64,000 bases of DNA from a virus: IMG/VR virus record IMGVR_UViG_3300013104_000002, positions 64,001 to 128,000 of that record; one strand, written 5' to 3'. Position 1 is the stretch's first letter, and every line of letters starts with the position of its first letter. This document shows, piece by piece, positions 30,480 through 63,277 of this stretch. The position numbers and the translations under genes are program-made. Below the pieces are notes generated by a model. The model was given only the letters and a program-made list of their open reading frames with translations, made no database searches and was not told where the DNA came from.

Positions 30480-30485
30480 CAGTAT

Positions 30486-30980: not shown

Positions 30981-30992
30981 AAATTAAAAATT

Positions 30993-33206: not shown

Positions 33207-33207
33207 T

Positions 33208-42982: not shown

Positions 42983-42984
42983 AT

Positions 42985-43287: not shown

Positions 43288-43327
43288 ATTTATTTGTTTT
43301 TATATTTTTATTTCGCGCGAAAAAGAA

Positions 43328-43699
43328 TTAAACAGGAGGAACTAACTGCAATCCTTCAAATAATCCAGCTTCTAAAGCATCTTCATAAGTATCGTACTCA
43401 ATATTAAAATTAGGATTGCTGCCATTTTCACCAGTTTTTAAAATACTAACTAGGTATTTACTATTATATGGTAGAATTTGTATATGGATATCATGGACTT
43501 CTCTAAGCCAACGTTGTAATAAAGATTGTGTTGGTGCCGAATACAACTCATCTTCAAAAAACTGTTCGGGATCAGAATAAAAGGGTAATTCTGGTTCAAA
43601 CTTACCAAACTGATTATAACAACCATATCCTTTGACTAGAATGAGACCTTTTTCTTGTGCTAACTTAGCTGTTTCAAATTTTATTTTTTCTTCTTCCAT
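43328..43699 (-). CDS. Hypothetical protein
   Basis: FETAKLAQEKG...APTQSLLQRWLREVH...TYEDALEAGL. Confidence 0.65.
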   Translation of the reverse strand: MEEEKIKFETAKLAQEKGLILVKGYGCYNQFGKFEPELPFYSDPEQFFEDELYSAPTQSLLQRWLREVHDIHIQILPYNSKYLVSILKTGENGSNPNFNIEYDTYEDALEAGLFEGLQLVPPV

Positions 43700-43717
43700 A
43701 ATTTAATTTTTAAAACA

Positions 43718-43859
43718 CAAATATACAACATTAAAATAATATACACAACAAAAAGTCCAAGAAAATACCCCACCTTATTAAAAAGGATACCCCCCTGTTT
43801 ATTAAAACCAAAAAAGTCGGTAGAAAAATTGGAAATAAGAAATAATAATCGTATATTTG
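43718..43859. promoter_or_regulatory. Divergent Bacteroidota promoters
   Basis: Minus: TTG(43748)-N20-TATATTTG(43718). Plus: TTG(43829)-N20-TATATTTG(43859). Confidence 0.7.
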
Positions 43860-43863
43860 TCAC

Positions 43864-44424
43864 ATGGATAAAATAAAAGCATTTGAGTATTTAATTCTAA
43901 AATTAGTAGAATGGTACGGAGATAATAATGACATGGGAACTCTTAAGAGCCTAAAACTTCTTTGGTTTGTATCAGTTGTTGAAGCAAATAAAGATTCTAA
44001 AGATAGTTTAATTGATAAAGTATTTGATAATTTTCATGCAATGCCTTATGGACATGTTGAAAAGGATATTTATGAAGCAATCCGTGGCAAAAAAATAAAA
44101 AACATAGAGCTGAAAAGTAATACCGCCAATATATTAAATAAGGATAGAATATTAGAAACCGATAAAGAGATTAGAGAATTAATAGATAAGAGTATTGAAA
44201 AATTTAAAATATTAGCTCCTGAATATATAAACCTACTTTCGTTTGATCTGGTTATTTTAAGTCAAAGATGGTATTCATGGAAGTATTACTATAAAAAAGC
44301 CAGACAAAAAGATAAGTTCTCAGAGAAAATACCAAATGAAATAATAAAAAACGAATTCAAATACTATGAGACTTATAACGAAAATGTTATTTACAGACTT
44401 CTGTGTGGGAGGACTATACCATAA
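43864..44424 (+). CDS. Panacea (SocA/GepA/DUF4065) antitoxin-domain protein
   Basis: LKSLKLLWFV...DNFHAMPYGHVEKDIYEAI...DLVILSQ...W matches the KLLYF...F.A..YGPV...Y pattern. Confidence 0.75.
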   Translation: MDKIKAFEYLILKLVEWYGDNNDMGTLKSLKLLWFVSVVEANKDSKDSLIDKVFDNFHAMPYGHVEKDIYEAIRGKKIKNIELKSNTANILNKDRILETDKEIRELIDKSIEKFKILAPEYINLLSFDLVILSQRWYSWKYYYKKARQKDKFSEKIPNEIIKNEFKYYETYNENVIYRLLCGRTIP

Positions 44425-45209
44425 CTCTCCAATCAGCCAGGCACTTTTTCCCTCCATACCCACCTTAGTATTGTTTCGGTTTTATCTGTCCTTAGAAAGC
44501 CGATTTTTACTTTTCGTTTCCAGATTTATTTTTAGTTGTTAGTTACTTTTATTTTGTTTCTTAGTTACTTGCTTAGTTACTTTTTATCTGTTTTTATATT
44601 GTTTTTCGCAGAATTTTTTAGCTCCTGTTTATTTTATATTTTCATTAGTATAATTTAAATAGGATTTTTTGTTTTTATAATCAAATTGTTTTTGCCCGAA
44701 ATTATAATATATGAACGCATGTGCGCGTACAATACGAAATTCTTTTTTAATATCCTAGTGTTTTTTATTTTTTATTAAGTTATTTTCGCCGTTTCTTTGT
44801 AGTGTTGAAAGGGTAGTGGGTTACTAACCAACTAAACAAAGTTCTTATAAGTAAAAGATTTTTAATAAACAAATTTATTTTTAATTATTTTTGTTTTATC
44901 TTTACAAAAGAATTAAGGATTACAAGTTATTTGACATATTGACAAGCGGTGTTACAAGTATCATATAAAGCTACTATTAATTTAGAAAGTGATTGCAGGG
45001 TGCGAACAAAGGTACACGCTTAATTTATCGGATTAAAACAATACTCTATTTATTAGAGAATCATATAAACATATATTAATGGCTTAATGTAAAGCCTTTT
45101 CTTATTCTTTTTTGTCGGCGAAATGCGGGAAAAGAAAACAAAGCCCTTGCAATTTAGTTGTAGCATCGAAGCAACGAGGGCGCAATTAACAATTTAAAAC
45201 AAAAACATT
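44425..45209. other. Long non-coding region: candidate genome terminus or origin plus structured early leader
   Basis: C-rich motif, three TTAGTTACTT repeats, T-rich tract, boxA-like site and several hairpins. Confidence 0.45.
44539..44582 (+). repeat. Direct repeats TTAGTTACTT x3
   Basis: Copies at 44539, 44561 and 44573. Confidence 0.7.
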
Positions 45210-45530
45210 ATGTTAGATATTATAGTAATTCCAGCAAAAAGATTTTATTATTTACATTTAGAAGGTAATAAATACAGATTATTAGAGGATACAGGTAAAA
45301 CAATCAATAAACATAGAATTATGTTAAACGTTGGCTATCCTAATGTAAAGACTTTTATAAAACAAAGTCAGGTTAATACTTTAAGTAATTGTGAAAGGTT
45401 ATTCGAAGCTACTTTTAACAGACTACCAATTGACGAAAAAGGTTATCATATTGGAAAGTTTCACAAATTAGACAACATTGATTTTTTTGAAATGTTAGAA
45501 ACTAAAAGAAAGTTATTATGCAAGAATTAG
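45210..45530 (+). CDS. Hypothetical protein
   Basis: 106 aa; first gene after the structured leader. Confidence 0.6.
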   Translation: MLDIIVIPAKRFYYLHLEGNKYRLLEDTGKTINKHRIMLNVGYPNVKTFIKQSQVNTLSNCERLFEATFNRLPIDEKGYHIGKFHKLDNIDFFEMLETKRKLLCKN

Positions 45531-45758
45531 AAAACTTTTTATTTTTTATATCAATTATAGGCGGTTTAATTATCGCCTTTTGTGTATTCTTATATTATAA
45601 ATCTAAAGACTAATTTCGGCAAAAAAGAAATAAAACAATGAAACTAACAGACAAAACACAAGTAATAATAGGTTTAACTATACTTATTATAACAATAATA
45701 GCAGGATTTATTTCTTTGCTTTATGTAATTGAATTATTAACATCTAAATTTTAGTATT

Positions 45759-45971
45759 ATGGAAGCAATAATATATGGAGTATTAAACAGTGAATTATGT
45801 TTAATAGACACTTCAAAAACTGAAAGAGGTGCAAAACAATACGCAACAAGAAACGGTTATAATTTAATCGGTTTTAGGATTGGTTACAATGCTTTTATTT
45901 TAGCCGAAAAAATCAACGGTAAATGGGAGCATAAAGATACTGCCTATACAGCTAATATAGTTAACAACTAA
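45759..45971 (+). CDS. Hypothetical protein
   Basis: D.SKTERGAK.YATRNGY motif. Confidence 0.6.
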   Translation: MEAIIYGVLNSELCLIDTSKTERGAKQYATRNGYNLIGFRIGYNAFILAEKINGKWEHKDTAYTANIVNN

Positions 45972-46167
45972 AAACATTTTTTATGATACGAGAATTTATA
46001 ATAGTAATAATAGGCTGTATTTTAGGCGTTTTTTCTATGACTTATTTTGCTTATAATGAGGGGCAAAAGAATAAAGAAAAGGAAATTATTAAAAGAGCAT
46101 TACAAATAAATAAAGACTGCTACAATCAAACAGATTTAGATATAATAATTTTTAACGAATCACAATT

Positions 46168-46470
46168 ATGAAAACATTAGATATAAACGCAAAGACTTGG
46201 TTTGACAAAGTAAACGGTAATAGTTATTTTAGTGCCGTTATTACAATAGATTACGGAACGCCCGAACAAAAAGAAATTAAATTGCCTTTCCAATATGGTT
46301 ATGGTTCACAATATGAAAGTGAAGCAAAAGCCGTATTAACTGAACATAATTATATAAGTCCTTCTTATGGGCAAAATTTATATACTTATTGTTTAGAGAA
46401 TAATATAATACTACGTTCAAATAATATTAAAAACTGCCGTAAAAAAGATTTAAAACATGAAAATAACTAA
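46168..46470 (+). CDS. Conserved small phage protein
   Basis: WFDKVNGNSYFS...LPFQYGYG.QY. Confidence 0.65.
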   Translation: MKTLDINAKTWFDKVNGNSYFSAVITIDYGTPEQKEIKLPFQYGYGSQYESEAKAVLTEHNYISPSYGQNLYTYCLENNIILRSNNIKNCRKKDLKHENN

Positions 46471-47056
46471 ACACCAAACCAAAGAATTAACTTACTATGA
46501 ATGTGAACCAATTAAAGGCTATCATTTATTTGCTTTCTCTTTTATTGCACTTTTAAGAGATTTATTTATTGTATATAAACTAACTATGTTTAACCCTAAA
46601 ACAATCAAGAACTAATGACATTTCTAAAATCACAAAGTACACTTGCATACAGGCTACTAAAGAACGAAAAAACAAAGCTTTATTATATTCGCCGTATAAA
46701 AGATAAAAAGACAGTTTTAATAGGCGACAACGACAAAGCAGAGCCGTTTATTTTATATGGTTTGGCGGAAAATAAAGAAGAAATAAAAGAATTATTTAAA
46801 AATTAAATACAATGGAAAACGAAATAGTATTTGAAGATTGTGATACACCAACAACAATTGCTAAAAAGACGGTTGATATTTTTGTTGGCACTAATGAACT
46901 AAAGCCACGACTTAAAAAGTTAGGGATTGATTACGTGAGAGTTCAGCGAGGTTTGAAAGTAGTTTATATTTTGCGGGGGAAACAAATAGGAAAATTAGAA
47001 ATAACTTTATAAAAAAGATTATATTTGTATAGCAAACATTTAAAAACAAAAAAGAC

Positions 47057-47389
47057 ATGAAAGCAAAAATAAAAGCATTAGCAAATTTCTTAGATTGTAA
47101 AAAGAAAGAAATTGAACAAGGTTACAACGAAAACACCTTCGAACATGAAGGAGAAGAGTATCTTGTTGTTACAGATAGCGAAGCAGACGATCTTTGGGAA
47201 GAGGATTTAGATAACTACATTGAAGAGTTTATTTACCCTCAATTTAAAGAAATAGGTTTACAGGAAAGATATTTTGACGAAGAGGCTTGGAAAAATGATG
47301 CAAAATATGATGGTCGAGCACATTCTCTGGCTCGATATGATGGTAACGAATACGAACAAGACGGATTTTATATTTATAGAACCAATTAA
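47057..47389 (+). CDS. Highly acidic protein (possible ArdA-like DNA mimic)
   Basis: EYLVVTDSEAD...YFDEEAW..D...DGRAH.LA.YDG.E; very D/E-rich. Confidence 0.5.
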   Translation: MKAKIKALANFLDCKKKEIEQGYNENTFEHEGEEYLVVTDSEADDLWEEDLDNYIEEFIYPQFKEIGLQERYFDEEAWKNDAKYDGRAHSLARYDGNEYEQDGFYIYRTN

Positions 47390-47515
47390 CATGCAACTAC
47401 AAACCAAAATCGATTTAGAAACTAAATATAGGTTTATTTTTCGGCAAAATAAAATAACAAAAGCTGATATAAAAACCGCAAACAAAATATTAATACAGTT
47501 AAAAAATATAAAGTC

Positions 47516-47794
47516 ATGAACTGGAAACAAAAAATAAAAGCCTATTTAAGAAAAGGGAATATCGAAAGGGCGCAAAAAGATAAACAGGAAAGAGTCAAAC
47601 AAATCTTAGACTTAATAAAAAAAGACAAAGACCCAAAAGAACAAATAAAGACTTTAGAGAGAGTAACAGAACGTTACAACCTCTACTTATCAGATTATAA
47701 AAACAACGCCTTAAAAGAACTACAGACAGTTAAATACAGGGTTGAAAGTGAGGTCGATGTTATCGAATGTTATTTGGGCGGTAAAACAATTTAA
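47516..47794 (+). CDS. Hypothetical protein
   Basis: 92 aa. Confidence 0.55.
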   Translation: MNWKQKIKAYLRKGNIERAQKDKQERVKQILDLIKKDKDPKEQIKTLERVTERYNLYLSDYKNNALKELQTVKYRVESEVDVIECYLGGKTI

Positions 47795-48148
47795 AAATAA
47801 AGATTATGAAACCATTTGATGAATTAGTAGAAGAAACAGTAAAAAGCCTTATTAATGGAAATACAGAAAACATTTTAAGTGATGATGTATTTAAGGCAGT
47901 ACAGAAAAGATTAAGAGAAATTAAAACTAATTGTACTCTAGTTTTAAAGCAAATGAAAGAATCAAAATAATTTAAAACTTATATTATGAAAACTAATAAA
48001 TACACTATGTATTCCAGATGATACTTATTTAAAAACTGTATCTAATAATTTACAAGTCATTAAGGAATATTCTTTTTTTGATTGCACTGTTTCTTAATCA
48101 CTAACATCTGAACTAAATATAAAATCATTTAACTTAATAGTTTTTATC

Positions 48149-48535
48149 ATGCAAACACAAATAGACAATACAGAAAATAATATATTAATAGCAAAGTTCT
48201 TAGGCTGGAAAGAACAAACAGACCCAACAAGAAGATGGTTTACACAGTTCTTTAATGAGTATGGAGAGCGAAAAGGAGGAACAAACAAAGAACCTTTATT
48301 ATTTCATTCTGATTGGAACTGGCTTATGTTAGCAGTAGAAAAGATAAACAGCTTTGAAAGTGGTCGTTTTACCGTTCAAATTAATTCAATGGATACTTAT
48401 ATCCACGATTTAGTAAAAGGAGGTTATATTTTTCAATCTGAGTGTAAATGGCAAACTTATGAGCTTATTAATTCAGTTTATGAAGCAGTAATAGAGTTTA
48501 TAAAATGGTATAACGAACAACAAAAGGCGGGATAA
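48149..48535 (+). CDS. Conserved Bacteroidota phage protein
   Basis: N.LIAKFLGW...FHSDWNWLM.AVEKI...VYEAV.EFIKWYN. Confidence 0.65.
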   Translation: MQTQIDNTENNILIAKFLGWKEQTDPTRRWFTQFFNEYGERKGGTNKEPLLFHSDWNWLMLAVEKINSFESGRFTVQINSMDTYIHDLVKGGYIFQSECKWQTYELINSVYEAVIEFIKWYNEQQKAG

Positions 48536-48556
48536 AAGAATAAAACAGAAATTACT

Positions 48557-48775
48557 ATGACAACAGACCAAATAAAAGAAAAGCTTTGCGAATATGATGA
48601 ACGCAATCCAAACTACAATAAAGACTATCCTAAAGTAAAAGAAGAATGCTACTGCGATAACTGTTTCTATGGGGGACATTATTTAGCAGAAGAATTATTA
48701 AAAGTCATTGCAGAACTCGAAAAAGAAAAAGAAGATTTTAAAATTCTTGAAAAATGCTATCTTGGTATTGAATAA
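48557..48775 (+). CDS. Small Cys-containing protein
   Basis: LC.YD.RNP...CYCDNCFYG. Confidence 0.6.
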   Translation: MTTDQIKEKLCEYDERNPNYNKDYPKVKEECYCDNCFYGGHYLAEELLKVIAELEKEKEDFKILEKCYLGIE

Positions 48776-48827
48776 TTTTCTATATTTGCACCTTAAATCA
48801 ATGTTTAACGGCAAAAAAACTTATTAA

Positions 48828-49049
48828 ATGGGTTATATAGCAAGAGAAATAAGGACAAATAAGGTATATTATAGTAAAGGAGCAAACAAATTAGCGGATA
48901 AAATAGGCTGTAACTACTCAACTATAACAAAATACTTCTCTAAACAACAAAATAAAGGAACGGAAAAGGAAATAAAAGGCTTTATTATATCTGAAACAAT
49001 AGATTTAACTAACCAAAACCGAGGAAATAATATAAAAATCAATGTTTAA
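48828..49049 (+). CDS. Small HTH (NUMOD1-like) protein
   Basis: ANKLADKIGCNYSTITKY. Confidence 0.55.
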   Translation: MGYIAREIRTNKVYYSKGANKLADKIGCNYSTITKYFSKQQNKGTEKEIKGFIISETIDLTNQNRGNNIKINV

Positions 49050-49094
49050 CGGGAATAAAACTTCCTATTCGGCGCAAAATAAAAAATAAAACAG

Positions 49095-49313
49095 ATGAAA
49101 ACAATCAAACAATGGTTAGAAACATTAGAAGAACCATACAAAACAGAAGCTTTAAATAACTCATACTCTTCAAATGAAGCTATAGAAGTAATGTCCCTAT
49201 CAGAAGCTTTGAAATGGGCTTTTACTTGGTCAGTTACCAATGAAGGTCACTACTATTGGTGTAATTTACATTCAATAAATCTAAATTCAGAAAGATTTGA
49301 ACAGGAAAGTTAA
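49095..49313 (+). CDS. Hypothetical protein
   Basis: SLSEAL..AF.W..T.EGH.YW motif. Confidence 0.6.
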   Translation: MKTIKQWLETLEEPYKTEALNNSYSSNEAIEVMSLSEALKWAFTWSVTNEGHYYWCNLHSINLNSERFEQES

Positions 49314-49436
49314 TAGGTGTACAACCCCAACCCACAATAAATTTGACTTTCAAACAAGGGCAAAAAAGTGAATTTAACTTAAAAACAACAAAAATCAGGC
49401 GAAAATAGTGATTTTTTACCTATTCAAATATAAAGT

Positions 49437-49736
49437 ATGGTTATGAAAAATCCAAATAAGAAGTTTGATAAGCAATTAGACACAATGAGAGAAGAGGCTT
49501 TACAGTATTTAAAGTATCTGGTATATAATAAGTTTAAGCAAAATAAGACCTTAAATTGTTTTGGTTTAGCTATGGGTGTTTGCTTTTGGGTTGATTTAGA
49601 TAATGAGGTATTATATGACCATGAGGTAAATGATAAGTTTGTACAGGAATTTATTCAGGAATGGGATGATGTGTTTAAGCTTACAGGAGAAGGTATTAAA
49701 TGGTTTAGGGATGGTTCTGTTATTACTGATTGGTAA
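49437..49736 (+). CDS. Hypothetical protein
   Basis: 99 aa. Confidence 0.55.
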   Translation: MVMKNPNKKFDKQLDTMREEALQYLKYLVYNKFKQNKTLNCFGLAMGVCFWVDLDNEVLYDHEVNDKFVQEFIQEWDDVFKLTGEGIKWFRDGSVITDW

Positions 49737-49796
49737 CTATTGTTTATCCTGTTTTAATTTCTTTTTCGCGCGAATTAATCAATTAAACTTAATACT

Positions 49797-50042
49797 ATGA
49801 AAACTATAATTAACATAGAAAACCACATTATAAACCGTTTAAAAATTTACTGTGTGGATTATCAAAGCATAAGAGGATTTAACACTAATTATTTAATACA
49901 TGAAGCTTATAAACCTGAATATTTAACCTTAAAATATAATACAGTTTTAATAGGTTGTAAAGGGCATGAAATAAGTGTAACAGAATTGGATATTAAATCT
50001 TTAATAAAACTATTTAGATTTATTGTAAGAGGTGGTAATTAG
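49797..50042 (+). CDS. Hypothetical protein
   Basis: 81 aa, preceded by the repeat. Confidence 0.55.
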   Translation: MKTIINIENHIINRLKIYCVDYQSIRGFNTNYLIHEAYKPEYLTLKYNTVLIGCKGHEISVTELDIKSLIKLFRFIVRGGN

Positions 50043-50107
50043 TAGTATTTTTTATTTCTGTTTTAATTTTCTTTTTCCCGCGATTTAACAACTAATAACA
50101 AAACAAC

Positions 50108-50557
50108 ATGAAAGACTTAATAATAACAGCTTTAAACGAAGCTAATACGATTTTAGAGAAAAGAGTACCACAAACAAATATAGAAGTAAAGCAGGTTATT
50201 ATAGAGGATGTTAACCCCTTGGAACTGGTTAAATTTATGAAGAAAAATAATATTCCCGATAATGCTTGGTTCGGGGGTATTGATAACGGTTATGATGGTT
50301 TTAGTGATGTTTGTTTAAATTACGATGTTATTTTACCCACTACAGAAAAAGAGAAATTAAAATTTAGACAAGAAAAGTTTAAACAAATAGCATTTAAACC
50401 TGTACATGATATTCTAATTAGTAACGGTTATAAAAGAGTAGGGTTTAATTCAGGATTATTAAAACAGTTTTCTGATACTAATGTATTTGATATGTTCTTT
50501 AATAAAGAATTTGATAGGCTTGTAGAGTATTATTCGCTATCTTTTATCCTTGCTTAA
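50108..50557 (+). CDS. Hypothetical protein
   Basis: 149 aa, flanked by repeats. Confidence 0.65.
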   Translation: MKDLIITALNEANTILEKRVPQTNIEVKQVIIEDVNPLELVKFMKKNNIPDNAWFGGIDNGYDGFSDVCLNYDVILPTTEKEKLKFRQEKFKQIAFKPVHDILISNGYKRVGFNSGLLKQFSDTNVFDMFFNKEFDRLVEYYSLSFILA

Positions 50558-51424
50558 TTTTCTTTTTCCCGCCAATTTTAATAATTAAAATGAATATTTA
50601 TGAACGATAGTGTATTAGATAGACAAAGAAAAATTGAAAAACTAGAAAATGAACTCCTCTTAATAAAGCAAAACTTTAGATTACTAAAGAGAAATGATAA
50701 AAATTATAAACAAGTGAGAGATAGTATTAATAATATGTATAATAAAATAGAGAATTTAAGACAACGTAATAAGCTTTTAATTTCTTTTATCGGAGATTTT
50801 TAACTTTTAAATTATTTACTATGAAACTATCTATATCGACATTTAAAATACTGTGCCACTTATGGAATTACCCCGAAGAAGTTTTAGAAGATAGAGAATA
50901 TCTTAATAAGACTTTATTGGCTTTAAATAGTCAGGATATTAATTTCAGTAAAAAAGAGAAAGAAACTGCAATAAAAGAAATAACTAAACTCTTAGATGTA
51001 TTATGACAAACTTGCAATTAAAAAACGACATAGAAAAATTGCTATCTTATGATATGTACTGTTATAGTGATATTACAACAGATTACTGCCCTGAACTTGG
51101 TTTTATATTAGATGTTAAAGATAATAGTTATTTTTACACTAATAAGCAGGACAGAGATAATGATGATTCAGAGATTATGAAATTATTAGAAAATAAATTT
51201 TACATGTAATGAACTTAAACGAAAGAATTTTAGAAAATGACTACCCTGTTAACTGGGGTTATTTGTATGTAGCTGATAACAGAATAATTCGTTCAGATAT
51301 ACAAGGTACAATTGCAGACTTAAAAAGAGATTTAAGAAGTCAGGGAATTTCTTGCACAGTAATTACTTTATGTGATATTGAAGGTAGAAGAAAATTGATG
51401 ACAGAGTAAATCAGTCAAAAAACA

Positions 51425-51484
51425 GGCAAAGGCGAGGTGCAGTCCGAAATAATAAGGAAATTGGGTTCGATTCCCTTTTTGCCA
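51425..51484 (+). ncRNA. Mini tRNA-like element
   Basis: Acceptor-like stem GGCAAAG/TTTTGCC plus A; T-arm GGG-TTCGATT-CCC; only one short internal hairpin. Confidence 0.5.
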
Positions 51485-51506
51485 CTAATTTAAAAACAAC
51501 TTAATT

Positions 51507-51713
51507 ATGAAAACATTTGAACTAATACCAACAAACGGTAGAAAATCGTTTTACGGAAAAGCAAAAGTAATAGAGTCAGAAAATAAAATAGAACTGCAAA
51601 GTTATGATACTATTGTAGCTCAAATTATTGATGGTGTGTTTACTGTAAATGGTAAATATAGCCTTACTACTGATATTCATATCAAGAGTTTTAGAAAATT
51701 TTATTCTGTTTAA
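51507..51713 (+). CDS. Conserved small phage protein
   Basis: KSFYGKAKV...LQSYDTIVA...YS.TT..HIK.F. Confidence 0.65.
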   Translation: MKTFELIPTNGRKSFYGKAKVIESENKIELQSYDTIVAQIIDGVFTVNGKYSLTTDIHIKSFRKFYSV

Positions 51714-51754
51714 TCTTTTTATGCGCGAAAATAATAACTAAAAACAACGTAATT

Positions 51755-52057: not shown

Positions 52058-53251
52058 GCTATGAAAAATTACAATCTAATAAGAGCAGAAAATAATGAGC
52101 TACAAAAATTGCAAAAATTTAAAAAGCCTTTCACAGATTTTGTAAATACAATAGTTTACTCAGGAGAAGAAACTGATGAAGATATGTGTGAATTTTTTCT
52201 ATTACAGGACAGCGAAAAAGAATTCGAAAAGTTAGACATAGAAATAGAAAAAACAGCCTTAAAATTAGCCAGACTTTTGGAATTAAAAGAACAAGAATTA
52301 AAAAACGCTATAATAAACATGTTATGAGTATGGACTTACTACAAGACGCATTAGAAAAAGTGACTTATGAAATGGCTTCAACAATAAAAAGAGGTCAGGA
52401 AATAACGTTAAATGAAAAATATACACTATATTTGTATGAAGCAGGACAAAGCTTAGTTATAGTGGAAACAGAAGACTGGAAAGAAATTTACTGGGTACAA
52501 TATAATCCAGAGAATAAAGCTATTGATTATGGAGGACTTTAAAATGGAGAACTTACATCAAATTAAGAATTATCTTGCAGAAGCATCAAGAAGAGCCAAT
52601 GATTTTGCCGATCAAAATAACGTTGAACTAATGGAATACTGGAAAGGTCAAGTTTTAGGAATGATTAAGATAATCAATCTTTTAGAATTAGATATTAATA
52701 CGGAATTTTATATAAAACAAATACCTTAAACTATGGAAGATTTAAACATTAAATTATTAGAGGGTTATTTAACAGAGGGTAAAGATAACAAAGAAATAGA
52801 AATACAAGACTATGAAGATTTAGGAACAGAGATAAAAGTTTGGTACTATTGGTATACTCCAAATTTAGAAACTATATCTTTATTTGATTTAATCAGTTTT
52901 GTTTATAGTAAAAATTCAGTTTCTTTTTAACCCCTTTTTTTCGCCAAAAAAACAATTTAAAAAATAAAATTATGACAACAGTAACAGTAGATATAGCAGA
53001 AAAAGATTTATTAAATTATACAATAATTGATAATATGAATTTAGAAATGTATGACGAAAACGGTCACAACAATTTATTTAAACAATATTCTTTCACGCTT
53101 TATCAAAAAAGAATTATGGGAGATGATAAAGTTACAATGCAAATATCTTTACATAGATTTTTATTGTTTAAAGGTTTTGGATTGGTAAAATAACTATGTT
53201 TTTATCTATTTTTGCCGAAAATTATACATACATTTACAAAAAATACTTATT

Positions 53252-54225: not shown

Positions 54226-54722
54226 AATTTCAATATAAAAAAGGAAACTATGAGAAACTATTTATTATTCAGCCTAGAACAGGACATGCCAATAAAATGG
54301 TTTGAAAAGTTCGACAAAGAAGAAATTAAAACAGCTATTATTAATCACCTAACAGAACATAAAACTGATCAATTAGAATTTTGTCGAGAATTTTCCGCAA
54401 AAGATTTAAAAAAGTATATAGGATATGAAATTATAGATTTCTATCAAAACAATAATAACAAGGTTTGTAAAGTAATCACAAAAGGAAATAGAGAGTTTTA
54501 TAAACCGTTAGATTCATACAAATGAAAGAACAATTAAGAGCTTTAATCACCAAGTTAGAGCAGGAGAATAGAAACAGAAGTATTATTTTAGAAGATGATA
54601 ATACTTTACCTGAAACACATTATAATTTACGTGTAAAGTATAACAATACATTATATATTATTAAACAGTTGAAAGAGATTTTACTTTCTTAATTTCTTTT
54701 TTCGCGCAAAAAACTTAAAAAC

Positions 54723-55291: not shown

Positions 55292-55433
55292 AACAGACAG
55301 ACTTAGAAGTCCTAAAAAGACTAAATAACGAAATAGACAGACAAGAAGTAATACAGTGGTTTAATGAAAACGACATAGATTATTTCACTATGACTGATTT
55401 AGAAATGTATATAACTTATATAGAAAAAAACTT

Positions 55434-55718: not shown

Positions 55719-56231
55719 TTCGAGGTAAAATGGAAGAAAACATAAAAATACTACAGACAAAAATTAAACTACTACAAGATATTAAACGATGTGATAAGAC
55801 TATCCTATATAATCTTAAAAATAAAGCAGGTGAGATTATAAATATCTTAAACTCTACTCGTGATAAAGAGAGTACAGTAGAAAGAAATATCTACATCCTA
55901 AGTAAAGAACAAAGACAGACTTTAGAAGATCTTCTATACAGTCTAAAGGCAGATAACTTAACTTCACAAAGAACAGAGCAACATGTTAAAGATTATGTGC
56001 GGGAAAAAGAAATAAAACAAGAAATATTAGACGGACTATGAAACCAATAGATAGATTAAAACAACAATACTATTATGTTCTTTATTATAAAATAGACGAA
56101 GAGGTAAAAAAATACAGGAAAATAAGGTATCAAGCTATGAAAGAGTTTTGTTTGGACTGTTCTTTACTTTCTCCCGCCGAAATAGAAGAAATGGAGCGAA
56201 GCGTAGGTGTTGAACATTAAAGAAATAAGAT

Positions 56232-56540
56232 ATGAAAATATATTCAGAACAAGATTTAAGAGAAGCTTTTAGGGCAGGTAGTAGCTACGGTATGAATTAT
56301 GTAAGCTGGCTTTCAGAAGTAAAAGATGAAGATGAGTACATTGAAAGTTTAAATCCTAAACAAGTAGATGAAGAGAAAATAAGTTTTACTTATTCTTTTT
56401 TGCGCCGAAAATTAGAATGGGAAGATTTTTGTGATTTAACAGGAATTAACTACTACGCTACAAGAAACGGGTTTGAAATAAAAGACAATGAGATATTTGA
56501 AATTACAGAATCAGAAGCTAAAGAATATGACTTAATTTAG
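56232..56540 (+). CDS. Hypothetical protein
   Basis: YSEQDLREAF.AG N-terminus. Confidence 0.6.
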   Translation: MKIYSEQDLREAFRAGSSYGMNYVSWLSEVKDEDEYIESLNPKQVDEEKISFTYSFLRRKLEWEDFCDLTGINYYATRNGFEIKDNEIFEITESEAKEYDLI

Positions 56541-57458
56541 AAGCTATGAAAACAACTTTAAAAGTACTACATAAGAGATTTAATAAACCCGAATTAATAT
56601 TAGAGACAACTATAAGCAGTTTTAAAATTTCTCAAACAAGAAAAAGTAACAAAGGGATAGACTGTTTTCAATGGTTCACAGAAGAAAGATTTAATAAAGA
56701 ATTTAAATTTTTAGATTAATTATGATAACAAAATACATCAGACTATTATCTTACGATGAAGCTTGCAAAGTAATAGATTTCGTAAATGAAAACTCCAAAC
56801 ATTATGCTTATATTACTATGGGCGGTGTTGGAGTACAGACAGAAGATTGGGCAGATTTAGAGAAATACATACAAACATTTACAAAAAGATATAATATTTC
56901 CAGCGAGCATCCCTATAAAACGGAGCAAAGAATAGTGAGTAATTTAAAGAATTGTTTTGAAATGTAGAAATTATGATAAAAGAAAAAGACAGATTTAGAT
57001 ATTCCCTACAGCCATTTAAAGGTTATAAATTTAGAGCTATATATTTAGTTGAAGATAATGAGACAGGTGAACAATTAACAAATGTAGATGTTTATACAAA
57101 TTGTGAAAACAAACAAATTGTTTTATTAGCCTTTTTTCGCGAATCAAAGAAAAAATATCCTCAACCACTTACAGCACAAATAATTCATTTTACTTCAAAG
57201 GAAGAACAAACACTTAGAGATATATGGAAGCATTAAAAATATTTAAATATTACTCCGACATAGGATACGATGTATTTTTTACTAAAATTTTCGGTAAAGA
57301 AGGACTAAAAATGGTAAAAAGGTATAGTTATAAAGCTGAGAGATCATTGGTTTGCACCCAGATATTCGAATACTCTGAGAAAAACGACAAAGAACTAAGA
57401 GAATGTTTACTATTCATGTATAATGATATTGAAGAACAAGAAGAAACTGGTAATTACT

Positions 57459-58151
57459 ATGAAGAAATTTAAAACTATACTAGTGGGGTGTGAGGAAAGT
57501 CAAGCTGTCACTATAGAGCTTAGAAAATTAGGGCATATAGCTTACAGTTGCGATTTACTTCCTTGTAGTGGAAATCATACAGAATGGCACTTACAAATGG
57601 ATGTTTTTAAAGCTATTGAGGGTGGAAAGTTAATCACTGAATCAGGAGAACTGATTTTAATAGATAAATGGGATATGGGAATTTTCTTCCCAGATTGCAC
57701 ATACTTAACTTGTAGTGCAGAATGGGCATATAAGGAGCCTCCGTATCATCAGAAAGTAAAAGAGGATACATTAACAGGTAAAAAAAGAATAGAAGCGAGA
57801 GACAAAGCAATAGAATTTGTAAAAGCATTATATGACTCTTACATCCCTAAAATAGTAATTGAAAATCCTGTAGGAGTATTAGGGACTAGATTTATGAAAC
57901 CAACCCAGACCATTCAACCTTATGAGTACGGAGATGATGCGAGTAAAAGGACATGTTTATGGATGAAGAATTTGCCTAAATTAAAACCCACACAATATGT
58001 AGCCCCCAGAATAGTAAACGGTAAGGAAAGATGGGCTAACCAGACAGATTCAGGACAAAATAAATTAACACCAACAGAAGACAGAGCAAAATTAAGAAGT
58101 AAAACTTATCCAGGAATTGCAAAACAAATGGCAATCCAATTTACTAGATAA
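57459..58151 (+). CDS. DNA cytosine-C5 methyltransferase-like protein
   Basis: ILVGCEESQAV, SCDL, FPDCTYL (IV), IENPVG (VI), IQPYEYG...KRTCLW (VIII), RSKTYPGIA..MA.Q. Confidence 0.8.
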   Translation: MKKFKTILVGCEESQAVTIELRKLGHIAYSCDLLPCSGNHTEWHLQMDVFKAIEGGKLITESGELILIDKWDMGIFFPDCTYLTCSAEWAYKEPPYHQKVKEDTLTGKKRIEARDKAIEFVKALYDSYIPKIVIENPVGVLGTRFMKPTQTIQPYEYGDDASKRTCLWMKNLPKLKPTQYVAPRIVNGKERWANQTDSGQNKLTPTEDRAKLRSKTYPGIAKQMAIQFTR

Positions 58152-58162
58152 ATGATAATTAA

Positions 58163-58726
58163 ATGCGTAAAAGAAGGACTAAAATAAAACAGGGAGATGT
58201 ATTTAATAGATTAACAATAGTTTCATTTGCATATTCTGACTCAAAAAGAAAAAGTTACTTTAATGTGATTTGTGAATGTGGGAACGAAAAAGTAATTTGT
58301 GGGGCACTCATGATTTCAGGAAACACTAAAAGTTGTGGCTGTCTTTCAAAAGAGATTAGGGCAAAAAAGAGAATACCCGAAAACTATTCTGAAATAACTT
58401 CCATTATTTTAGGTTATAAAAGACATGCTAAAGATAGGGGGTTTATCTGGGGATTAAGGCGAGAAGATGTGAAAATTATTATATTCCAAAATTGCAATTA
58501 TTGTGGAATGCCTCCCATGAATATAAAAAGAACTAAGAATTCTATAGGAGAAGGTTTACGTTATTCAGGAATAGATAGAAGAGACTCCCTAAAGGATTAT
58601 ACCTTAGAGAATGTTGTACCTTGTTGTAAGATATGCAACTTTGCAAAAAGCAACCTCACTTTTATAGAATTTAAAGCTTGGTTAGAAAGAATATGTGAAA
58701 ATATTAATAAATGGGAAAATATTTAA
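58163..58726 (+). CDS. HNH homing endonuclease
   Basis: CECG...TKSCGC; CNYCG...GIDR.DS...Y..ENVVPCC..CN..K. Confidence 0.88.
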   Translation: MRKRRTKIKQGDVFNRLTIVSFAYSDSKRKSYFNVICECGNEKVICGALMISGNTKSCGCLSKEIRAKKRIPENYSEITSIILGYKRHAKDRGFIWGLRREDVKIIIFQNCNYCGMPPMNIKRTKNSIGEGLRYSGIDRRDSLKDYTLENVVPCCKICNFAKSNLTFIEFKAWLERICENINKWENI

Positions 58727-58728
58727 AT

Positions 58729-59019
58729 ATGAAAACAATAGAAATTTACGGCACATTATACTTAACAGTAACAGCCGACGAGGCACAGGAATTACCTGAT
58801 GAAGGACATGAAATATATTTACTTAAAGAAGATGGGAGTTTGGACGATATTAACTTAGAAAGTATTTTATACGAAAATGTAGAGTATGTTGTTAAAATCG
58901 GCGAAATAGAAGAACTAAGAAGCGAGTACGAAGAAGGACAACAAAACAGATTTAGAAATAATGTGAGAATGAGTTTTGAAGATTTTATAGATCAAAAAGT
59001 TGAAATGTGTTTGATATGA
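58729..59019 (+). CDS. Acidic hypothetical protein
   Basis: ORF-track protein; likely start MKTIEI. Confidence 0.55.
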   Translation: MKTIEIYGTLYLTVTADEAQELPDEGHEIYLLKEDGSLDDINLESILYENVEYVVKIGEIEELRSEYEEGQQNRFRNNVRMSFEDFIDQKVEMCLI

Positions 59020-59499
59020 ATAAAGTAGATAAATTACTAAAAGCATTAAAACCTTGTACAAAAGCTCTTATGAAACTTTCATTTAAAGAGTTTGAGGTTA
59101 AAGATGGACAAAAACAAATAAGTCCTACAATAAGTAATCAAAATATATTAATAGAGGATTAGTATGCACCAATTGACATCAGAAGAAATACCACAAGAAA
59201 TAATAGATAGATATATTCCGCAAGAAATAATATTAAGAGAGAAACTAATTAGAAAAATAAACGAGATGTATCAGTACCATCCAGAATCTTATAATAATGC
59301 TTGTAAAGGTAATTACTCTTTTATTCAGGATTTATTAGAGAGACATATTTTTCATTACTGTTAATTCTTTTTTTGTATAAATGGGAATTAATCATTATCT
59401 TTACAATTTAATATTAAATAAGTAAAGTAATGGTGGTTCAGACCATCTAAGAGTTCGAAGTTAGAAAAGAATTTATATCGATTTAAGTATAAAGCTGAT

Positions 59500-59988
59500 A
59501 TGATGAAGTTTTTAAATAACAATTTTTACGAATCAGTAAATGGTACAGTTTCTTTAAATCATAACTCCTTTAATTGTAGTAACACAAGAAGAGAATGGTT
59601 TGTTTGGTATAATGATTATGCTATAAAAAACACTCCTTTAAAAATTGTTTTAAAACAAATGGATTTTAGAGGAAGAAAATTTATATCCAAAAATAATATA
59701 ATTAGTAAAGAAGATAAAAGATACTTCGCTTTTTCAGAAAAAGTAATTAGATTGATGTGCAATATTTACGAAAATGATGAAAGGACAATTCTACCAAGTA
59801 AGGCTAAAAAATTAATAAATCTCTTTGAAAAGAGAGGATTTAAAGATTTTGAACCTTCTGAAGAAGACTGGACATATATCAATGGTCATATAGGAGATGG
59901 TATCTCTTTTTGGCACTGGAGTGATAGATGTAACTTTTTAAGATGTAAAGTAATTTTAGAATATTTTAAAAGAGAAGGATTATGTTAG
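59500..59988 (+). CDS. Hypothetical protein
   Basis: 162 aa. Confidence 0.55.
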   Translation: MMKFLNNNFYESVNGTVSLNHNSFNCSNTRREWFVWYNDYAIKNTPLKIVLKQMDFRGRKFISKNNIISKEDKRYFAFSEKVIRLMCNIYENDERTILPSKAKKLINLFEKRGFKDFEPSEEDWTYINGHIGDGISFWHWSDRCNFLRCKVILEYFKREGLC

Positions 59989-60356
59989 AAAAAGCACAAG
60001 AACTTAAAGGACTACAAAGTCAACTTAAGATAAAAGATGTACAAATAACTGAGAAAAAAGCTCAGATAGGAGAATTACAAAGAGAATTGAATGTTTTACA
60101 GAATTCGCGCCAAAAAATCTTAGACAAAATAGAAAGAATTAAACCTAAAGAACAACTGAGAGTAACAGAACACAGTCTTTTAAGATATATTCAACGTGTG
60201 AAGGGTATTGATTTAAAAGAGATTGAAAAAGAAATACTCGAGGATACTAGTTTAATAGAAGCCAGGAAAACTTTAGATACAGATGGTAAGTTTCCTTTAA
60301 AAGATGGAGGAAGAGTTGTAATAAAAAATTCAACAATTGTAACTGTAGAAAAGTAA
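59982..60356 (+). CDS. Coiled coil plus RelE/DUF4258-like domain
   Basis: VTEHSLLRYIQRV...VIKN.TIVTV. Confidence 0.5.
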   Translation: MLEKAQELKGLQSQLKIKDVQITEKKAQIGELQRELNVLQNSRQKILDKIERIKPKEQLRVTEHSLLRYIQRVKGIDLKEIEKEILEDTSLIEARKTLDTDGKFPLKDGGRVVIKNSTIVTVEK

Positions 60357-60591
60357 ATTATGAAACATTTTATCTATTTTGAATCTACCGAGGGAGGTAT
60401 GAAATCAAATAAATATTCATTTAAAGATAACAATATAGAATTTAATCTATTTGGTTGGATGAATAAAAAATCTGGATGTAATATTTCAGATACTCAACTA
60501 CTGAATTGGGCGAAAGAATGTAAAATAGGAGACTATTTTGAACATAGGATGGGGACTTGTGTTAGGGTAAGTAAATAAAAACAGAAATTTC

Positions 60592-60622
60592 TTTGGTAAA
60601 TTAAAAAATAGTATTAACTTTG
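60592..60622 (+). promoter_or_regulatory. Bacteroidota promoter
   Basis: TTTG-N19-TAACTTTG. Confidence 0.7.
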
Positions 60623-60639
60623 ACAAAATTATAAAAGAT

Positions 60640-61395
60640 ATGAAACTAAGTAAACCACTTATTTACCACGATTTAGAAACGACTGGTGTATCAACAGAAA
60701 ATGATCGTATAGTTGAAATAGCAGCAATTAAGTATTTTCCAGATGGAAGTACAGAGGAAAAACATTTTTTAATTAATCCTGAAATACCTATCCCTTTGGG
60801 GGCAGCAGAAGTGCATGGAATAACAGACGATAAAATTAAAGACGCACCTACATTCAAACAGTTAGCGGTATCTATGAGATCTTGGTTCGATGGATGCGAT
60901 TTAGCAGGTTATAATTCAGACCGTTTTGATGTTTTACTTTTGTCAGCAGAATTTGAGCGCGCAGGACTAGAAGGAATAACTTGGAATCCTGCATTGTTAG
61001 ATATTTTCACAATGTATAGAAAATTATTTCCTAATACGTTATCAGATGTTTACAAAAGATTGACAGGAAAAGTACTTGAAGGTGCTCACGGAGCTATCAA
61101 TGACATAAGATCAACTAAAGAAATAGCAGATATTTTAATTCCAAGTATGATTGAATTATCTGAAACACCTTTGGAAACTGTTGTTGATTTTGATAATTAC
61201 ATGCAGGGTAGTAATAAGAGGTATGATCTTGCGGGAAAGCTATATAAAGATGAAGAAGGGGTTGTTAGGTACAACTTTGGTAAGGATTTAGGTAAATCAG
61301 TTAAAGAGTTCCCTGGCTTCGGTCAATGGATGTTAAACCAATCTTTCCCCCAAGAGACAAAAAATAAATTAAAAGAACTAATATATAATAAATAA
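60640..61395 (+). CDS. DEDDh 3'-5' exonuclease (DnaQ-like)
   Basis: DLETTG, VHGITD, GYN..RFD, AHGA.ND; C-terminal NFGK..G motif. Confidence 0.92.
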   Translation: MKLSKPLIYHDLETTGVSTENDRIVEIAAIKYFPDGSTEEKHFLINPEIPIPLGAAEVHGITDDKIKDAPTFKQLAVSMRSWFDGCDLAGYNSDRFDVLLLSAEFERAGLEGITWNPALLDIFTMYRKLFPNTLSDVYKRLTGKVLEGAHGAINDIRSTKEIADILIPSMIELSETPLETVVDFDNYMQGSNKRYDLAGKLYKDEEGVVRYNFGKDLGKSVKEFPGFGQWMLNQSFPQETKNKLKELIYNK

Positions 61396-62336
61396 TGGAA
61401 GAAAAAAAGTACCTTTACTGGGCGATACAATCAAGTCAATCAGTAAACCCAACAGAAGAACAATTAGAGCTTTTTCAAGCTAAATATAAAGAAGATTATG
61501 AACAAGATTTAGTTTATGAAGGAGAAGATCTTTTAGATAAATTTAGATTAAATGGTTTTAGAAATCCTTTATTCAGCTCTATTACTTCGATCATTTTAGC
61601 TTTTGAGAACGGAGGAGAGATGAGAGTGAAATATATTACAGGAAGTGAGGCTGATTTGTTACAGAATTTTGTAAACCTATTACGAAACAGTTTTCAAGAT
61701 TATACCCTTATTAACTTTGATTCTGAAATTTTATTACCGTTTTTAGGTGTTCGCCTACATAAGAACAATTTTATCAACTTAATCCATCGAGACTTAAAAT
61801 ACCAAGGCGGAATGAGAAGCTGGAACTTTACAGGAATCTCAATAAAAGACTACTACAAAGGTGGAGGTAAATATAGTTTCTCTTTAAAAGAGATTGCTTA
61901 CATTTTAAATATTGACACACAAGGATTAATCAACCATCGTGATGAATTTACTTATGTAAATGCAGGGGATGAAGAAGCTTTAAAAATTTCGGCTATAAAA
62001 CAAGTAGAAGTAATGGCTGAGATTTGGAGAAAATTAAATGAACTTCCAAAACTGGAAACTAAATTAATTGAAGAAACAGTTAAAGATGTAGTTGAAGAGG
62101 AAAATACAGGGAAAACTCTTCTTAAGTCTATTTATCGCGCCGAAAACATTGACAACAAAACAAAAGAAGAATTGAAGAACCTTTTGGCTAAAAAGAAAAT
62201 TCTAAAAAAAGATAAAGCTATTATAGAAGAAATTCTGACATCAATTTACATCAGTAATGAAATGTTTAAAACAGATTCAGACGCGACAAAAGAAAGAAAA
62301 AAACAAGAAATTAAAGACTTACTAAATGAGTATTAA
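61395..62336 (+). CDS. PolB-type 3'-5' exonuclease-fold protein, apparently degenerate
   Basis: L.P.FS.I.SI, GSE.DLL..F, LPFL..R and SLKE.A..L.I resemble the family, but the ExoI D-x-E position reads AIQ. Confidence 0.55.
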   Translation: MEEKKYLYWAIQSSQSVNPTEEQLELFQAKYKEDYEQDLVYEGEDLLDKFRLNGFRNPLFSSITSIILAFENGGEMRVKYITGSEADLLQNFVNLLRNSFQDYTLINFDSEILLPFLGVRLHKNNFINLIHRDLKYQGGMRSWNFTGISIKDYYKGGGKYSFSLKEIAYILNIDTQGLINHRDEFTYVNAGDEEALKISAIKQVEVMAEIWRKLNELPKLETKLIEETVKDVVEEENTGKTLLKSIYRAENIDNKTKEELKNLLAKKKILKKDKAIIEEILTSIYISNEMFKTDSDATKERKKQEIKDLLNEY

Positions 62337-63075
62337 AATAGACTTACCTAAAAAATATAATTACGAAGAAGGGTCTTCCAGACCAGAATATAAAAAATAT
62401 AGTGGTTGGAATAAAGTATCTTATAGTCAGATTACAAGTTTTCTGAGTGATGAGTACAAAGGTGATTACTTTATGGGGTACTTTGTAGGTAAAAGAGATG
62501 ATGGAAACATATTCAGTTTTTTTGGTAGCGGTTGTGGTGACTACTTAAATCGAAAAGATCAGCGAGTAGATGAATACCTATCAGAAGATTGTAAAAAGAT
62601 TTTAGACTCAATTCAACAACCAGATAATGCTGATTATGAATATGAGATTTTAATTGATTTAGAGCCTTTTGGATTAGAAAAAACTGTTTTGCAGGGGTTT
62701 TCAGATATTCAGTACGAAATTGCCCCTAAAGTCCTAGAATTAGCAGATTACAAAACTTTGAACCTTGATAAGAAAAAAGAATTCTATGAATCAGATGACT
62801 ATCAACAGTTGAATACTTATGGATTTGGATTAGAAGAATTAGGGTTTACTATTAATAAAAGTTCTGTTTTTGGTTTAGGAAGAAAAGGAAATACTTTAGA
62901 TAAAACTAAATTTAGTTCTGCTGGAAATCCTTTATGGCTTAGATTAAGTGGAGAAGTTGAGGAAATTGACAGACCTTATAATAGAGAAGAAGCAAAGAAA
63001 TATGTTCAAAAAATTGCTGACACTTGTGTAAAGATAAATGAATATTTTAAAGTTTTTAATAAACACTTTAACTAA
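62326..63075 (+). CDS. PD-(D/E)XK exonuclease (RecB/Cas4-like)
   Basis: SYSQI, YE, GFSD, ADYKT, QL.TY. Confidence 0.85.
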   Translation: MSIKIDLPKKYNYEEGSSRPEYKKYSGWNKVSYSQITSFLSDEYKGDYFMGYFVGKRDDGNIFSFFGSGCGDYLNRKDQRVDEYLSEDCKKILDSIQQPDNADYEYEILIDLEPFGLEKTVLQGFSDIQYEIAPKVLELADYKTLNLDKKKEFYESDDYQQLNTYGFGLEELGFTINKSSVFGLGRKGNTLDKTKFSSAGNPLWLRLSGEVEEIDRPYNREEAKKYVQKIADTCVKINEYFKVFNKHFN

Positions 63076-63079
63076 TTTC

Positions 63080-63110
63080 TTGCATAATTAAAATAAAGGT
63101 TGTAGATTTG
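63080..63110 (+). promoter_or_regulatory. Bacteroidota promoter for the RNA genes
   Basis: TTG-N20-TAGATTTG; nearly identical to the promoter at 30448. Confidence 0.75.
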
Positions 63111-63119
63111 CAGTATTAA

Positions 63120-63244
63120 GTTGAGATGGTGGAATTAGTAGACACTATATTGAATAAAATCCATTGGTATGACAGGTATGCCTATTTAATATGAAAATGT
63201 GAATAATAGTAGCATTTATGTAGGTTCAAGTCCTACTCTTGACT
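63120..63244 (+). tRNA. Non-canonical tRNA-Leu-like RNA (125 nt, expanded anticodon arm)
   Basis: Acceptor GTTGAGA/TCTTGAC; D-arm GTG-gaattagtaga-CAC; T-arm GTAGG-TTCAAGT-CCTAC; long variable arm; no encoded CCA. Confidence 0.65.
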
Positions 63245-63277
63245 TATTCTTTTTTTGCGCGAAAATATTAACAATAC

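Follow-up and report, generated by a model that had tools for sequence, protein, structure and literature searches.

The stretch of DNA analyzed here, called the window throughout, comprises 64,000 nt (bases 64001–128000) of the 146,490-bp virus record IMGVR_UViG_3300013104_000002 of the IMG/VR database, which has terminal repeats, contains 30% G + C, and probably originates from a rhizosphere metagenome. The genome of 146,490 bp that holds the window is denoted G0 (or G000); coordinates are those of the window unless a genome is named. The terminase is 39% identical with those of the Cellulophaga phages phi4:1 and phi17:2 (Lightbulbvirus, 145 kb), and its kinship to epsilon-type and other crAss-like phages is more distant. 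A structural block on the minus strand occupies about 20–86 kb of G0, and the other genes, most of them small, form arrays on the plus strand. These arrays contain, mainly at gene junctions, a repeat of about 30 bp, which is the subject of this analysis. The repeat is a real, strongly non-random DNA signal of the small-gene arrays of this phage clade and, judging from its sequence features, is most likely a site recognized by a protein at the DNA level, controlling transcription of the accessory arrays.

The consensus of the repeat is TTTTAYYCTGYTTTWAWTTYYTTTTT-CGCGMR-AA, in which a CTGYTTTWA box is followed by a stretch rich in T and C with TTTTT at its end, then by a CGCG-type core and AA. 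The spacing from CTG to CGCG is 16 nt, and the T-tracts are phased by about 10 bp. All six elements quoted in a preliminary description of this DNA, which had been made from the sequence alone, were found at the positions given there. The likeness among these six strong copies stops at about 35 bp with sharp edges, and the flanks are unrelated. The observation that the TAA within the repeat is the stop codon of the preceding open reading frame (ORF) held for the four cases named (50557, 51713, 52930, and 43328), and 54692 is another one. The distance to the next ATG, originally put at 13–30 nt, was measured as 15–27 nt from the end of the core for the strong copies. The individual copies, with their profile scores, are as follows.

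43299–43342, minus strand: strong copy, 32.7 bits; TAA is the stop of ORF 43328–43699 (minus), core 26 nt before the ATG of ORF 42985–43287 (minus)
49742–49787, plus strand: strong copy, 36.9 bits; core CGCGCG 24 nt before ATG 49797, upstream stop codon precedes the repeat
50056–50095, plus strand: strong copy, 27.1 bits; core CCCGCG 25 nt before ATG 50108
50541–50589, plus strand: strong copy, 25.4 bits; the TAA of CTTAAT ends ORF 50108–50557, core 26 nt before ATG 50600
51698–51742, plus strand: strong copy, 28.6 bits; TAA is the stop of ORF 51507–51713, core 27 nt before ATG 51755
54678–54720, plus strand: strong copy, 25.4 bits; TAA is the stop of ORF 54522–54692, core 15 nt before ATG 54723
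52924–52953, plus strand: weak copy (T7-CGCC-A7), 6.1 bits; TAA is the stop of ORF 52733–52930, followed by ATG 52972
53197–53223, plus strand: weak copy (TGTTTTTATCTATTTTTGCCGAAAA), 2.7 bits; ahead of ATG 53252
49069–49101, scored on the minus strand: copy, 11.7 bits; plus-strand core CGGCGC 21 nt before ATG 49095
55993–56021, minus strand: antisense copy, 11.7 bits; within the 3′ end of ORF 55730–56041
63237–63274, plus strand: copy, 16.3 bits; after a conserved block of genes (exonuclease, 313-aa protein, 249-aa protein) and a tRNA-like element
30734–30771, plus strand: copy, 17.4 bits; within a gene-free stretch of 548 bp after a phoH-like gene
41485–41517, minus strand: weak antisense copy, 8.5 bits; inside ORF 41178–41528
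23304–23335, minus strand: weak antisense copy, 9.9 bits; inside ORF 22718–23656
G0 3.3, 6.1, 6.95, 11.7, and 13.3 kb: further copies, in the left arm

Four of the weaker copies proposed earlier, at about 52920, 53200, 30737, and 63244, were thus detected by the profile, but the one at about 44582 is a poor match by eye. The repeat had been placed at 43–63 kb, where copies indeed occur, but the family spans all of the non-structural half, with copies in the left arm as well.

When the six strong copies were used to build a profile, it gave 27 matches of at least 8 bits in the 146-kb genome G0, compared with 0.8 in Markov-3 shuffles and none in the reversed genome; this is the enrichment over a shuffled background that the preliminary description had put forward as a check. 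For comparison, relatives were reached via a neighboring exonuclease, namely, G1, a fragment of 41.6 kb, and the whole genomes G4 (142 kb) and G5 (139 kb). The exonuclease of G0 is 61–65% identical to its G4 and G5 counterparts, proteins shared between G0 and G1 are 50–79% identical, and the DNA common to G0 and its relatives is about 70% identical. Counts over four genomes refer to G0, G1, G4, and G5. A megablast of the array against phage records gave no matches, and aligning the exonuclease over metagenome contigs gave no confirmed relatives. G1, G4, and G5 each carry the motif, with the consensus maintained despite the divergence of the shared proteins. A second-round profile detected 77 copies of at least 10 bits over the four genomes (0.5 in Markov-3 shuffles and none in the reversed sequence), and a leader-free model of 28 nt detected 44 copies, with none in local 30-nt shuffles.

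A trivial explanation would be that T-rich gene ends and A-rich leaders happen to flank rare CG words in an AT-rich genome. Reversed A-rich leaders do resemble the T-rich arm, and part of the antisense calls at junctions may consist of a core plus a generic leader. However, the Markov-3, local 30-nt, reversed, and synonymous-codon controls gave about 0–3 copies, compared with the 44–77 observed, and the pattern TGYTT-N5-12-TTTT-N0-3-SCGS occurs 20–39 times per complete genome but 0–1 times in mirror controls. The shuffle and mirror controls refute this explanation, the probability of which is practically negligible.

Scanning IMG/VR with the pattern revealed the motif in multiple copies on further contigs of about 53–143 kb. 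The core pattern was absent from a more distant contig with an exonuclease that is 43% identical, and neither the motif nor an analogous junction repeat was found in the right-hand 46 kb of the Cellulophaga phage phi4:1. Copies are as similar to each other within a genome (0.754) as between genomes (0.760, p = 0.68), and no genome-specific sub-variants were found. This similarity favors a single recognition specificity common to the genomes and argues against homogenization from copy to copy or a recent burst.

The copies are concentrated in the non-structural half, with 16 of 17 copies in G0 and 32 of 33 in G5, and a single copy each in the minus-strand structural block. Altogether, 69% of the copies are intergenic or lie no more than 35 nt from a gene end, and in 26 of 76 copies (about 34%) the CG core precedes the next ATG by 14–34 nt, whichever strand scores better. 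Of 77 copies, 19 contain a stop codon, eight in sense and 11 in antisense orientation, which is possible because TTAA reads TAA on both strands. No switch of orientation by strand or by position along the genome, that is, no replication-type bias, was seen. In two cases, the motif and the downstream gene stay together although their left neighbors differ; for example, the G5 ortholog of the 100-aa gene that follows the copy at 51698–51742 also has an upstream copy next to different left neighbors. The copy at 49069–49101 is conserved in G4 after the orthologous upstream gene, and the G4 ortholog of the phoH-like gene is likewise followed by a copy. The strong minus-strand copy lies within an island of three minus-strand genes (42473–43699) embedded in the plus-strand arrays, in the same orientation as these genes; the island may be a trace of an inversion.

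The host-type promoter, that is, the promoter of the primary sigma factor of Bacteroidota, consists of a −33 TTTG and a −7 TAnnTTTG element about 19 nt apart. Full sites of this type occur 23 times elsewhere in the genome, preceding the structural operons and several plus-strand operons, but not once inside the element, in agreement with the initial statement that the repeat does not match TAnnTTTG. Apart from the repeat elements, no host-type promoter was found at 49–60 kb. Matches to E. coli-type promoters are not enriched in the array either (102, compared with 107.7 in shuffles). A host-type or E. coli-type promoter within the element was rejected on these grounds. Folding of eight copies gave z-scores of +0.16 to +1.28, that is, structures weaker than those of shuffled sequences, without a conserved hairpin, and the strongest copies, CCCGCGATTT and CCCGCCAATTTT, have no A-run partner. 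The array contains seven terminator-like sites (5.3 in shuffles), none of them at a copy. The weak folds and the lack of terminator enrichment rule out an RNA hairpin, a terminator, or an attenuator. Scans of 43–64 kb with Rfam and for tRNAs found no family and no tRNA.

The leading interpretation is that a single DNA-binding factor, either conserved across the phage clade or supplied by the host, would dock at the repeat and control transcription of the accessory, probably early, small-gene arrays. We infer protein binding, a transcriptional role, and a start site from the sequences, and assign a probability of roughly 40% to a promoter-type role. Four observations make us lean in this direction, namely, the geometry of two boxes, the sense copies that stand alone in a stretch without other promoters, the two units of motif and gene that moved together, and the sense bias of the best copies. 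In the run from 49.7 to 54.7 kb, the element is most likely a phage-specific promoter because the copies are in sense orientation, host-type promoters are lacking, and the cores are located 15–27 nt before an ATG. Two boxes 16 nt apart would correspond to the geometry of promoters of the sigma-70 family, and transcription would start a few nt past the core, giving the transcripts a leader that is short, unstructured, and rich in A. Tight packing of the genome would have squeezed the element into the gene junctions, and its palindromic TTAA therefore doubles as the upstream stop codon in either orientation.

Phage-specific promoter classes have been recognized as conserved intergenic motifs, such as those of the T7-type, of phiKZ/AR9, and of phage 7-11 (PMC4331800), and the intergenic repeats of the halovirus HF2 carry promoters (PMC8707807). 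The repeat shares with such classes a motif length of 25–35 bp, tens of copies ahead of genes that belong to one functional half, a sequence distinct from the host promoter consensus, and conservation in related phages. Unlike these classes, it has no cognate polymerase or sigma factor that could be found, and about half of the copies in the relatives are antisense or intragenic.

Several results weigh against a promoter. With the leader-free model, the four genomes contain 24 sense and 20 antisense copies at 10 bits or more, which is roughly even, and 13 loci sampled independently from other relatives contain 14 sense and 20 antisense copies. In one relative, five consecutive copies are antisense to a minus-strand array; four of their cores lie 24–62 nt before the next start codon, where the reversed T-rich arm forms the A-rich leader, and the fifth is intragenic. 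A simple promoter class should be mostly in sense orientation, and thus the roughly even distribution argues against one. The preliminary description had the copies in front of genes always on the sense strand, which is true for the six strong copies, but the copies at 49069, 55993, 41485, and 23304, as well as about half of those in the relatives, are antisense or intragenic. Overall, the repeat is better supported than first described, but also more widespread and less regular. Furthermore, 24 copies lie deep within genes of the four genomes, 13 in sense and 11 in antisense orientation, compared with 0.7 and 2.75, respectively, expected from synonymous-codon shuffles that preserve each protein sequence and the codon usage of each gene. 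Because of this excess, at least some internal copies seem to be maintained at the DNA level. Copies are retained at orthologous junctions only rarely (16 of 74), and at about five sites the motif follows a host-type −7 box by 29–43 nt, an arrangement equally suited to an operator. In addition, no RNA polymerase or sigma factor of the phage is recognizable, and no DxDxD motif was found in proteins of more than 600 aa, save for an acidic run in a 2125-aa protein.

The orientation of the element itself was also analyzed with a core-only definition, which gave 143 sites with a T-run, an S-core, and an A-run. The CTGYTT box is present upstream on the sense strand at 27 of these sites (background 2.7%), and its reverse complement is present downstream at 43 (background 9%), whereas the wrong-side controls gave 6 and 2. 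Both arms occur together at eight sites, with about eight expected under independence. Gene starts with a core have the upstream sense box in 10 of 30 cases, compared with 36 of 804 in the background (p = 1e-6), and the reverse box in the leader in 12 of 30, compared with 138 of 804 (40% versus a background of 17%, p = 0.006). The reverse box is less specific than the upstream sense box because words of this kind are common in A-rich leaders. With the threshold raised to 14 bits, the leader-free model detected 14 sense and five antisense copies in the four genomes, with none in the local-shuffle null. Thus, these data describe an oriented, bipartite element that is used both ways and the best copies of which are modestly sense-biased.

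These features are also compatible with an operator, a roadblock, or an architectural site, to which a clade-specific or host protein would bind without transcription being started by the element itself. The binding protein could be an array-silencing repressor, comparable to that of the mycobacteriophage stoperators, or a bending protein like HU/IHF; orientation would then be irrelevant, and copies would occur wherever the coding constraints permit. Such a role fits the mixture of orientations, and also the internal copies, which appear to be under selection both ways, better than a promoter or a recombination joint does. The palindromic core region (T-run, CGCG, A-run) with its phased T-tracts, the box on either side of the core far above the wrong-side controls, and the single consensus common to all genomes are in line with it as well. 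Copies just downstream of host-type −7 boxes number 12, with 6.0 ± 2.4 expected, and one copy abuts a −33 element; the position after −7 boxes is compatible with tandem promoters or with an operator equally well. A possible binder is a 102-aa ORF at 20743–21051 (minus strand), which matches Bac_DNA_binding (HU/IHF) with 18 bits, below the Pfam cut-off of 22.4, and a similarly weak match is present in G5. On the other hand, the arms do not co-occur beyond expectation, so that there is no sign of a cooperative dyad, the copies have no fixed position relative to recognizable promoters, the binding protein was not identified, and the strongest copies are mainly in sense orientation and alone in a promoter-free stretch. 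On balance, we regard an operator-type or roadblock role as somewhat less likely than a promoter-type role. The stoperators of cluster A mycobacteriophages such as L5 are sites of 13–17 bp, in one direction relative to transcription, that are bound by the immunity repressor of the temperate phage. They resemble the repeat in being many short asymmetric sites in intergenic gaps along operons, and act on the DNA through protein binding. The repeat differs in its length of about 30 bp, its bipartite structure, its mixed orientation (24:20 and 14:20), and in that no repressor was identified.

As to a promoter, its reader was sought among the proteins of the phage. Sigma-70 region 2 (PF04542) gave a noise match of 12 bits and region 4_2 (PF08281) none, and a T7-type RNA polymerase (RNAP; PF00940) was not found in the genome, a search that the control genomes were unable to validate. 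The class II pause and termination signal of T7 RNAP consists of ATCTGTT followed by a U-run and requires a single-subunit polymerase of the T7 type. Several copies of the repeat similarly read (A/T)TCTGTTTT followed by a T-run, but the CGCG core has no counterpart in that signal, and the polymerase needed is the one not found in that unvalidated search. The virion proteins of 1682 aa and 2125 aa have no sequence match in the PDB; residues 56–476 of the former resemble a crAss "putative RNA-polymerase subunit", which is a weak link. Hence, of the earlier proposal of a promoter for a virion RNAP, the promoter-type role remains plausible, but a cognate polymerase was not found beyond this weak likeness. 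A crAss-type virion RNAP would be expected as a large virion protein with DFDxD, which was not seen, and the hairpin promoters of N4-type virion RNAPs (a stem of 5–7 bp with a 3-nt loop) have no equivalent here, as no hairpin is conserved.

In phi14:2, a crAss-like and related podophage of Bacteroidota, the middle genes have sigma-70-like promoters, and middle as well as late transcription relies on the host polymerase (10.1101/2020.03.07.982082). For its early genes, phi14:2 uses a virion polymerase with DFDID, and no common motif was found upstream of the early transcripts (10.1101/2020.03.07.982082). The phage analyzed here differs on both counts, having a strong motif and no recognizable polymerase. 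A more far-reaching variant is that the repeat could be the signal of a highly diverged, virion-delivered transcription machine of the crAss-related phages of about 140 kb, with copies in both orientations at gene junctions, each supplying the stop codon of the neighboring gene, driving sense and antisense transcription that would time the arrays; this we consider unlikely. The 2125-aa virion protein, encoded outside of the window (G000 27121–33498, minus strand), has an N-terminal ART-PolyVal ADP-ribosyltransferase domain (35 bits). This domain recalls Alt of T4, an injected enzyme that modifies the host RNA polymerase.

The preliminary description had also considered a homology joint by which accessory genes are shuffled as cassettes. 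In this scenario, akin to the promoter early stem-loop (PeSL) elements of T4-type phages or to a small selfish repeat, short homology would allow a UvsX-type recombinase to gain, lose, and swap genes, and a UvsX-like recombinase is indeed encoded at 26877–27854. The copies are concentrated where small genes are hypervariable and where genes adjoin, and the units of motif and gene occur in differing contexts. The conserved exonuclease block has a copy at its end in G0, in G1 (plus strand), and, inverted, in G4 (minus strand), whereas in G5 (plus strand) the copy lies one extra gene of 73 aa further on. The motif is nearly absent from conserved adjacent gene pairs (1 of 69) and present at 12.6% of the boundaries between shared and unique stretches. 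However, its frequency inside unique stretches is nearly the same (10.3%), and thus it is a feature of the variable arrays and not of breakpoints as such. In the four genomes, 18 ends of homology blocks lie within 40 nt of a motif, compared with 18.2 ± 4 for random nearby gene boundaries, so the proposed coincidence of gene-content breaks with the repeat showed no excess, although relatives with about 70% nucleotide identity are too diverged for a sharp test, which limits the power of these comparisons. Further points against a joint are the lack of homogenization within a genome, the sharp edges of a likeness of only about 30 bp, and the full intragenic copies maintained against synonymous drift. 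Among sequencing runs, the probable source run, with DNA of a rhizosphere metagenome, is the only one listed as containing this sequence, and no RNA run is listed. Contigs of the source run covering 43.2–63.1 kb contained no deletion or joint between copies, although contigs cannot show rare variants; the single apparent joint had sides of 22 letters and 841 foreign letters, another contig's. The cassette-shuffling proposal is thus not supported by these comparisons, and a recombination joint appears quite unlikely.

PeSL elements combine a stem-loop terminator with an early promoter of the sigma-70 type, and ends of indels coincide with them (PMC2839356, PMC4122927). Like them, the repeat is short and recurs between the small ORFans of hyperplastic regions, but it has neither a stem-loop nor a host-type promoter consensus, and the block ends show no corresponding coincidence with the motif, within the power that the diverged relatives allow. 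Integron attC sites are imperfect palindromes of 57–141 bp that fold as single strands and are used by a tyrosine recombinase; the conserved part of the repeat, in contrast, comprises about 30–35 bp and is unfolded.

Finally, the repeat might act in the RNA, the U-rich tract, the CG island, and the A-rich run of the leader influencing translation of the next gene as an enhancer of the S1 type or as a site for a regulator like RegA of T4. The position of the core 14–34 nt before the ATG, regardless of which strand scores best, the low structure of the region compared with shuffles, and the presence of some copies in 5′ leaders downstream of host-type promoters would fit. Yet the CTGYTT box is read on either strand, full copies occur deep within genes and in antisense orientation above expectation, and in the relatives the consensus is maintained in the non-transcribed orientation, all of which make a leader element very improbable.

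To our knowledge, nothing is known about gene control in this clade of Bacteroidota-type phages of about 130–155 kb, and we know of no promoter consensus for the crAss-related phages of about 140 kb. If the repeat is a true promoter, it would provide crAss-related phages with a first consensus for non-host transcription. One signal of 30 bp that marks hypervariable arrays can serve as a probe for fishing out its regulator and as a means of predicting the transcription units of uncultured phages from their genomes. The repeat is also an example of a signal accommodated in the junctions of a compact genome, with a palindromic TTAA as stop codon either way.

Several further features of the genome are worth recording. 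A role of the CGCG core as a restriction site was rejected, as the sequence of the core is variable and CGCG is over-represented (70, compared with 43, in the whole-genome count). Two other words are scarce: CCGG occurs five times in G0 (about 69 expected) and GGCC once (about 67), and in G4 the counts are 2 versus 72 and 3 versus 65. This looks like avoidance of HpaII/MspI-type and HaeIII-type sites, and is weaker in G5 and G1. At the head of the array, 44425–45209 is a gene-free stretch of 785 bp that includes the segment TTTTTTGTCGGCGAAATGCGGGAAAAGAAAACAAAGCC. The segment is nearly identical in G5 (about 25682–25730 of the flipped sequence), where it lies in a similar long gap after a host-type promoter, and it may represent a conserved non-coding RNA. 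Within the array, a gap of 97 bp contains a tRNA-like T-arm (GGTTCGATTCCC, 51420–51490), for which ARAGORN predicted no tRNA and Rfam gave no match.

Two genes of the window are likely counter-defense genes by their domain content: 43864–44424 (plus strand) encodes a 186-aa protein with a SocA/Panacea antitoxin-like domain (27.5 bits), and the 250-aa protein encoded at 38860–39612 (plus strand) matches Acb3, an inhibitor of the CBASS defense system (E = 9e-35). Searches for the host in genome contigs gave nothing with GroEL and only a Saccharibacteria match with ribonucleotide reductase. The 251-aa DnaQ-like exonuclease encoded at 60640–61395 (plus strand) has 5842 homologs at E ≤ 1e-10, many of them 60–73% identical. 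Several are located on contigs of 130–155 kb, one of which is filed as a Nitrososphaeraceae metagenome-assembled genome. From these matches, the phage clade appears to be widespread and looks common in soil and water metagenomes, and the Nitrososphaeraceae contig looks like a mis-binned member. Homologs of two array proteins, of 149 aa (50108–50557) and 242 aa (57423–58151), are 44–58% identical and occur in unrelated viral contigs of 28–65% G + C that do not carry the motif; judging from this distribution, single accessory genes appear to travel widely among phages.

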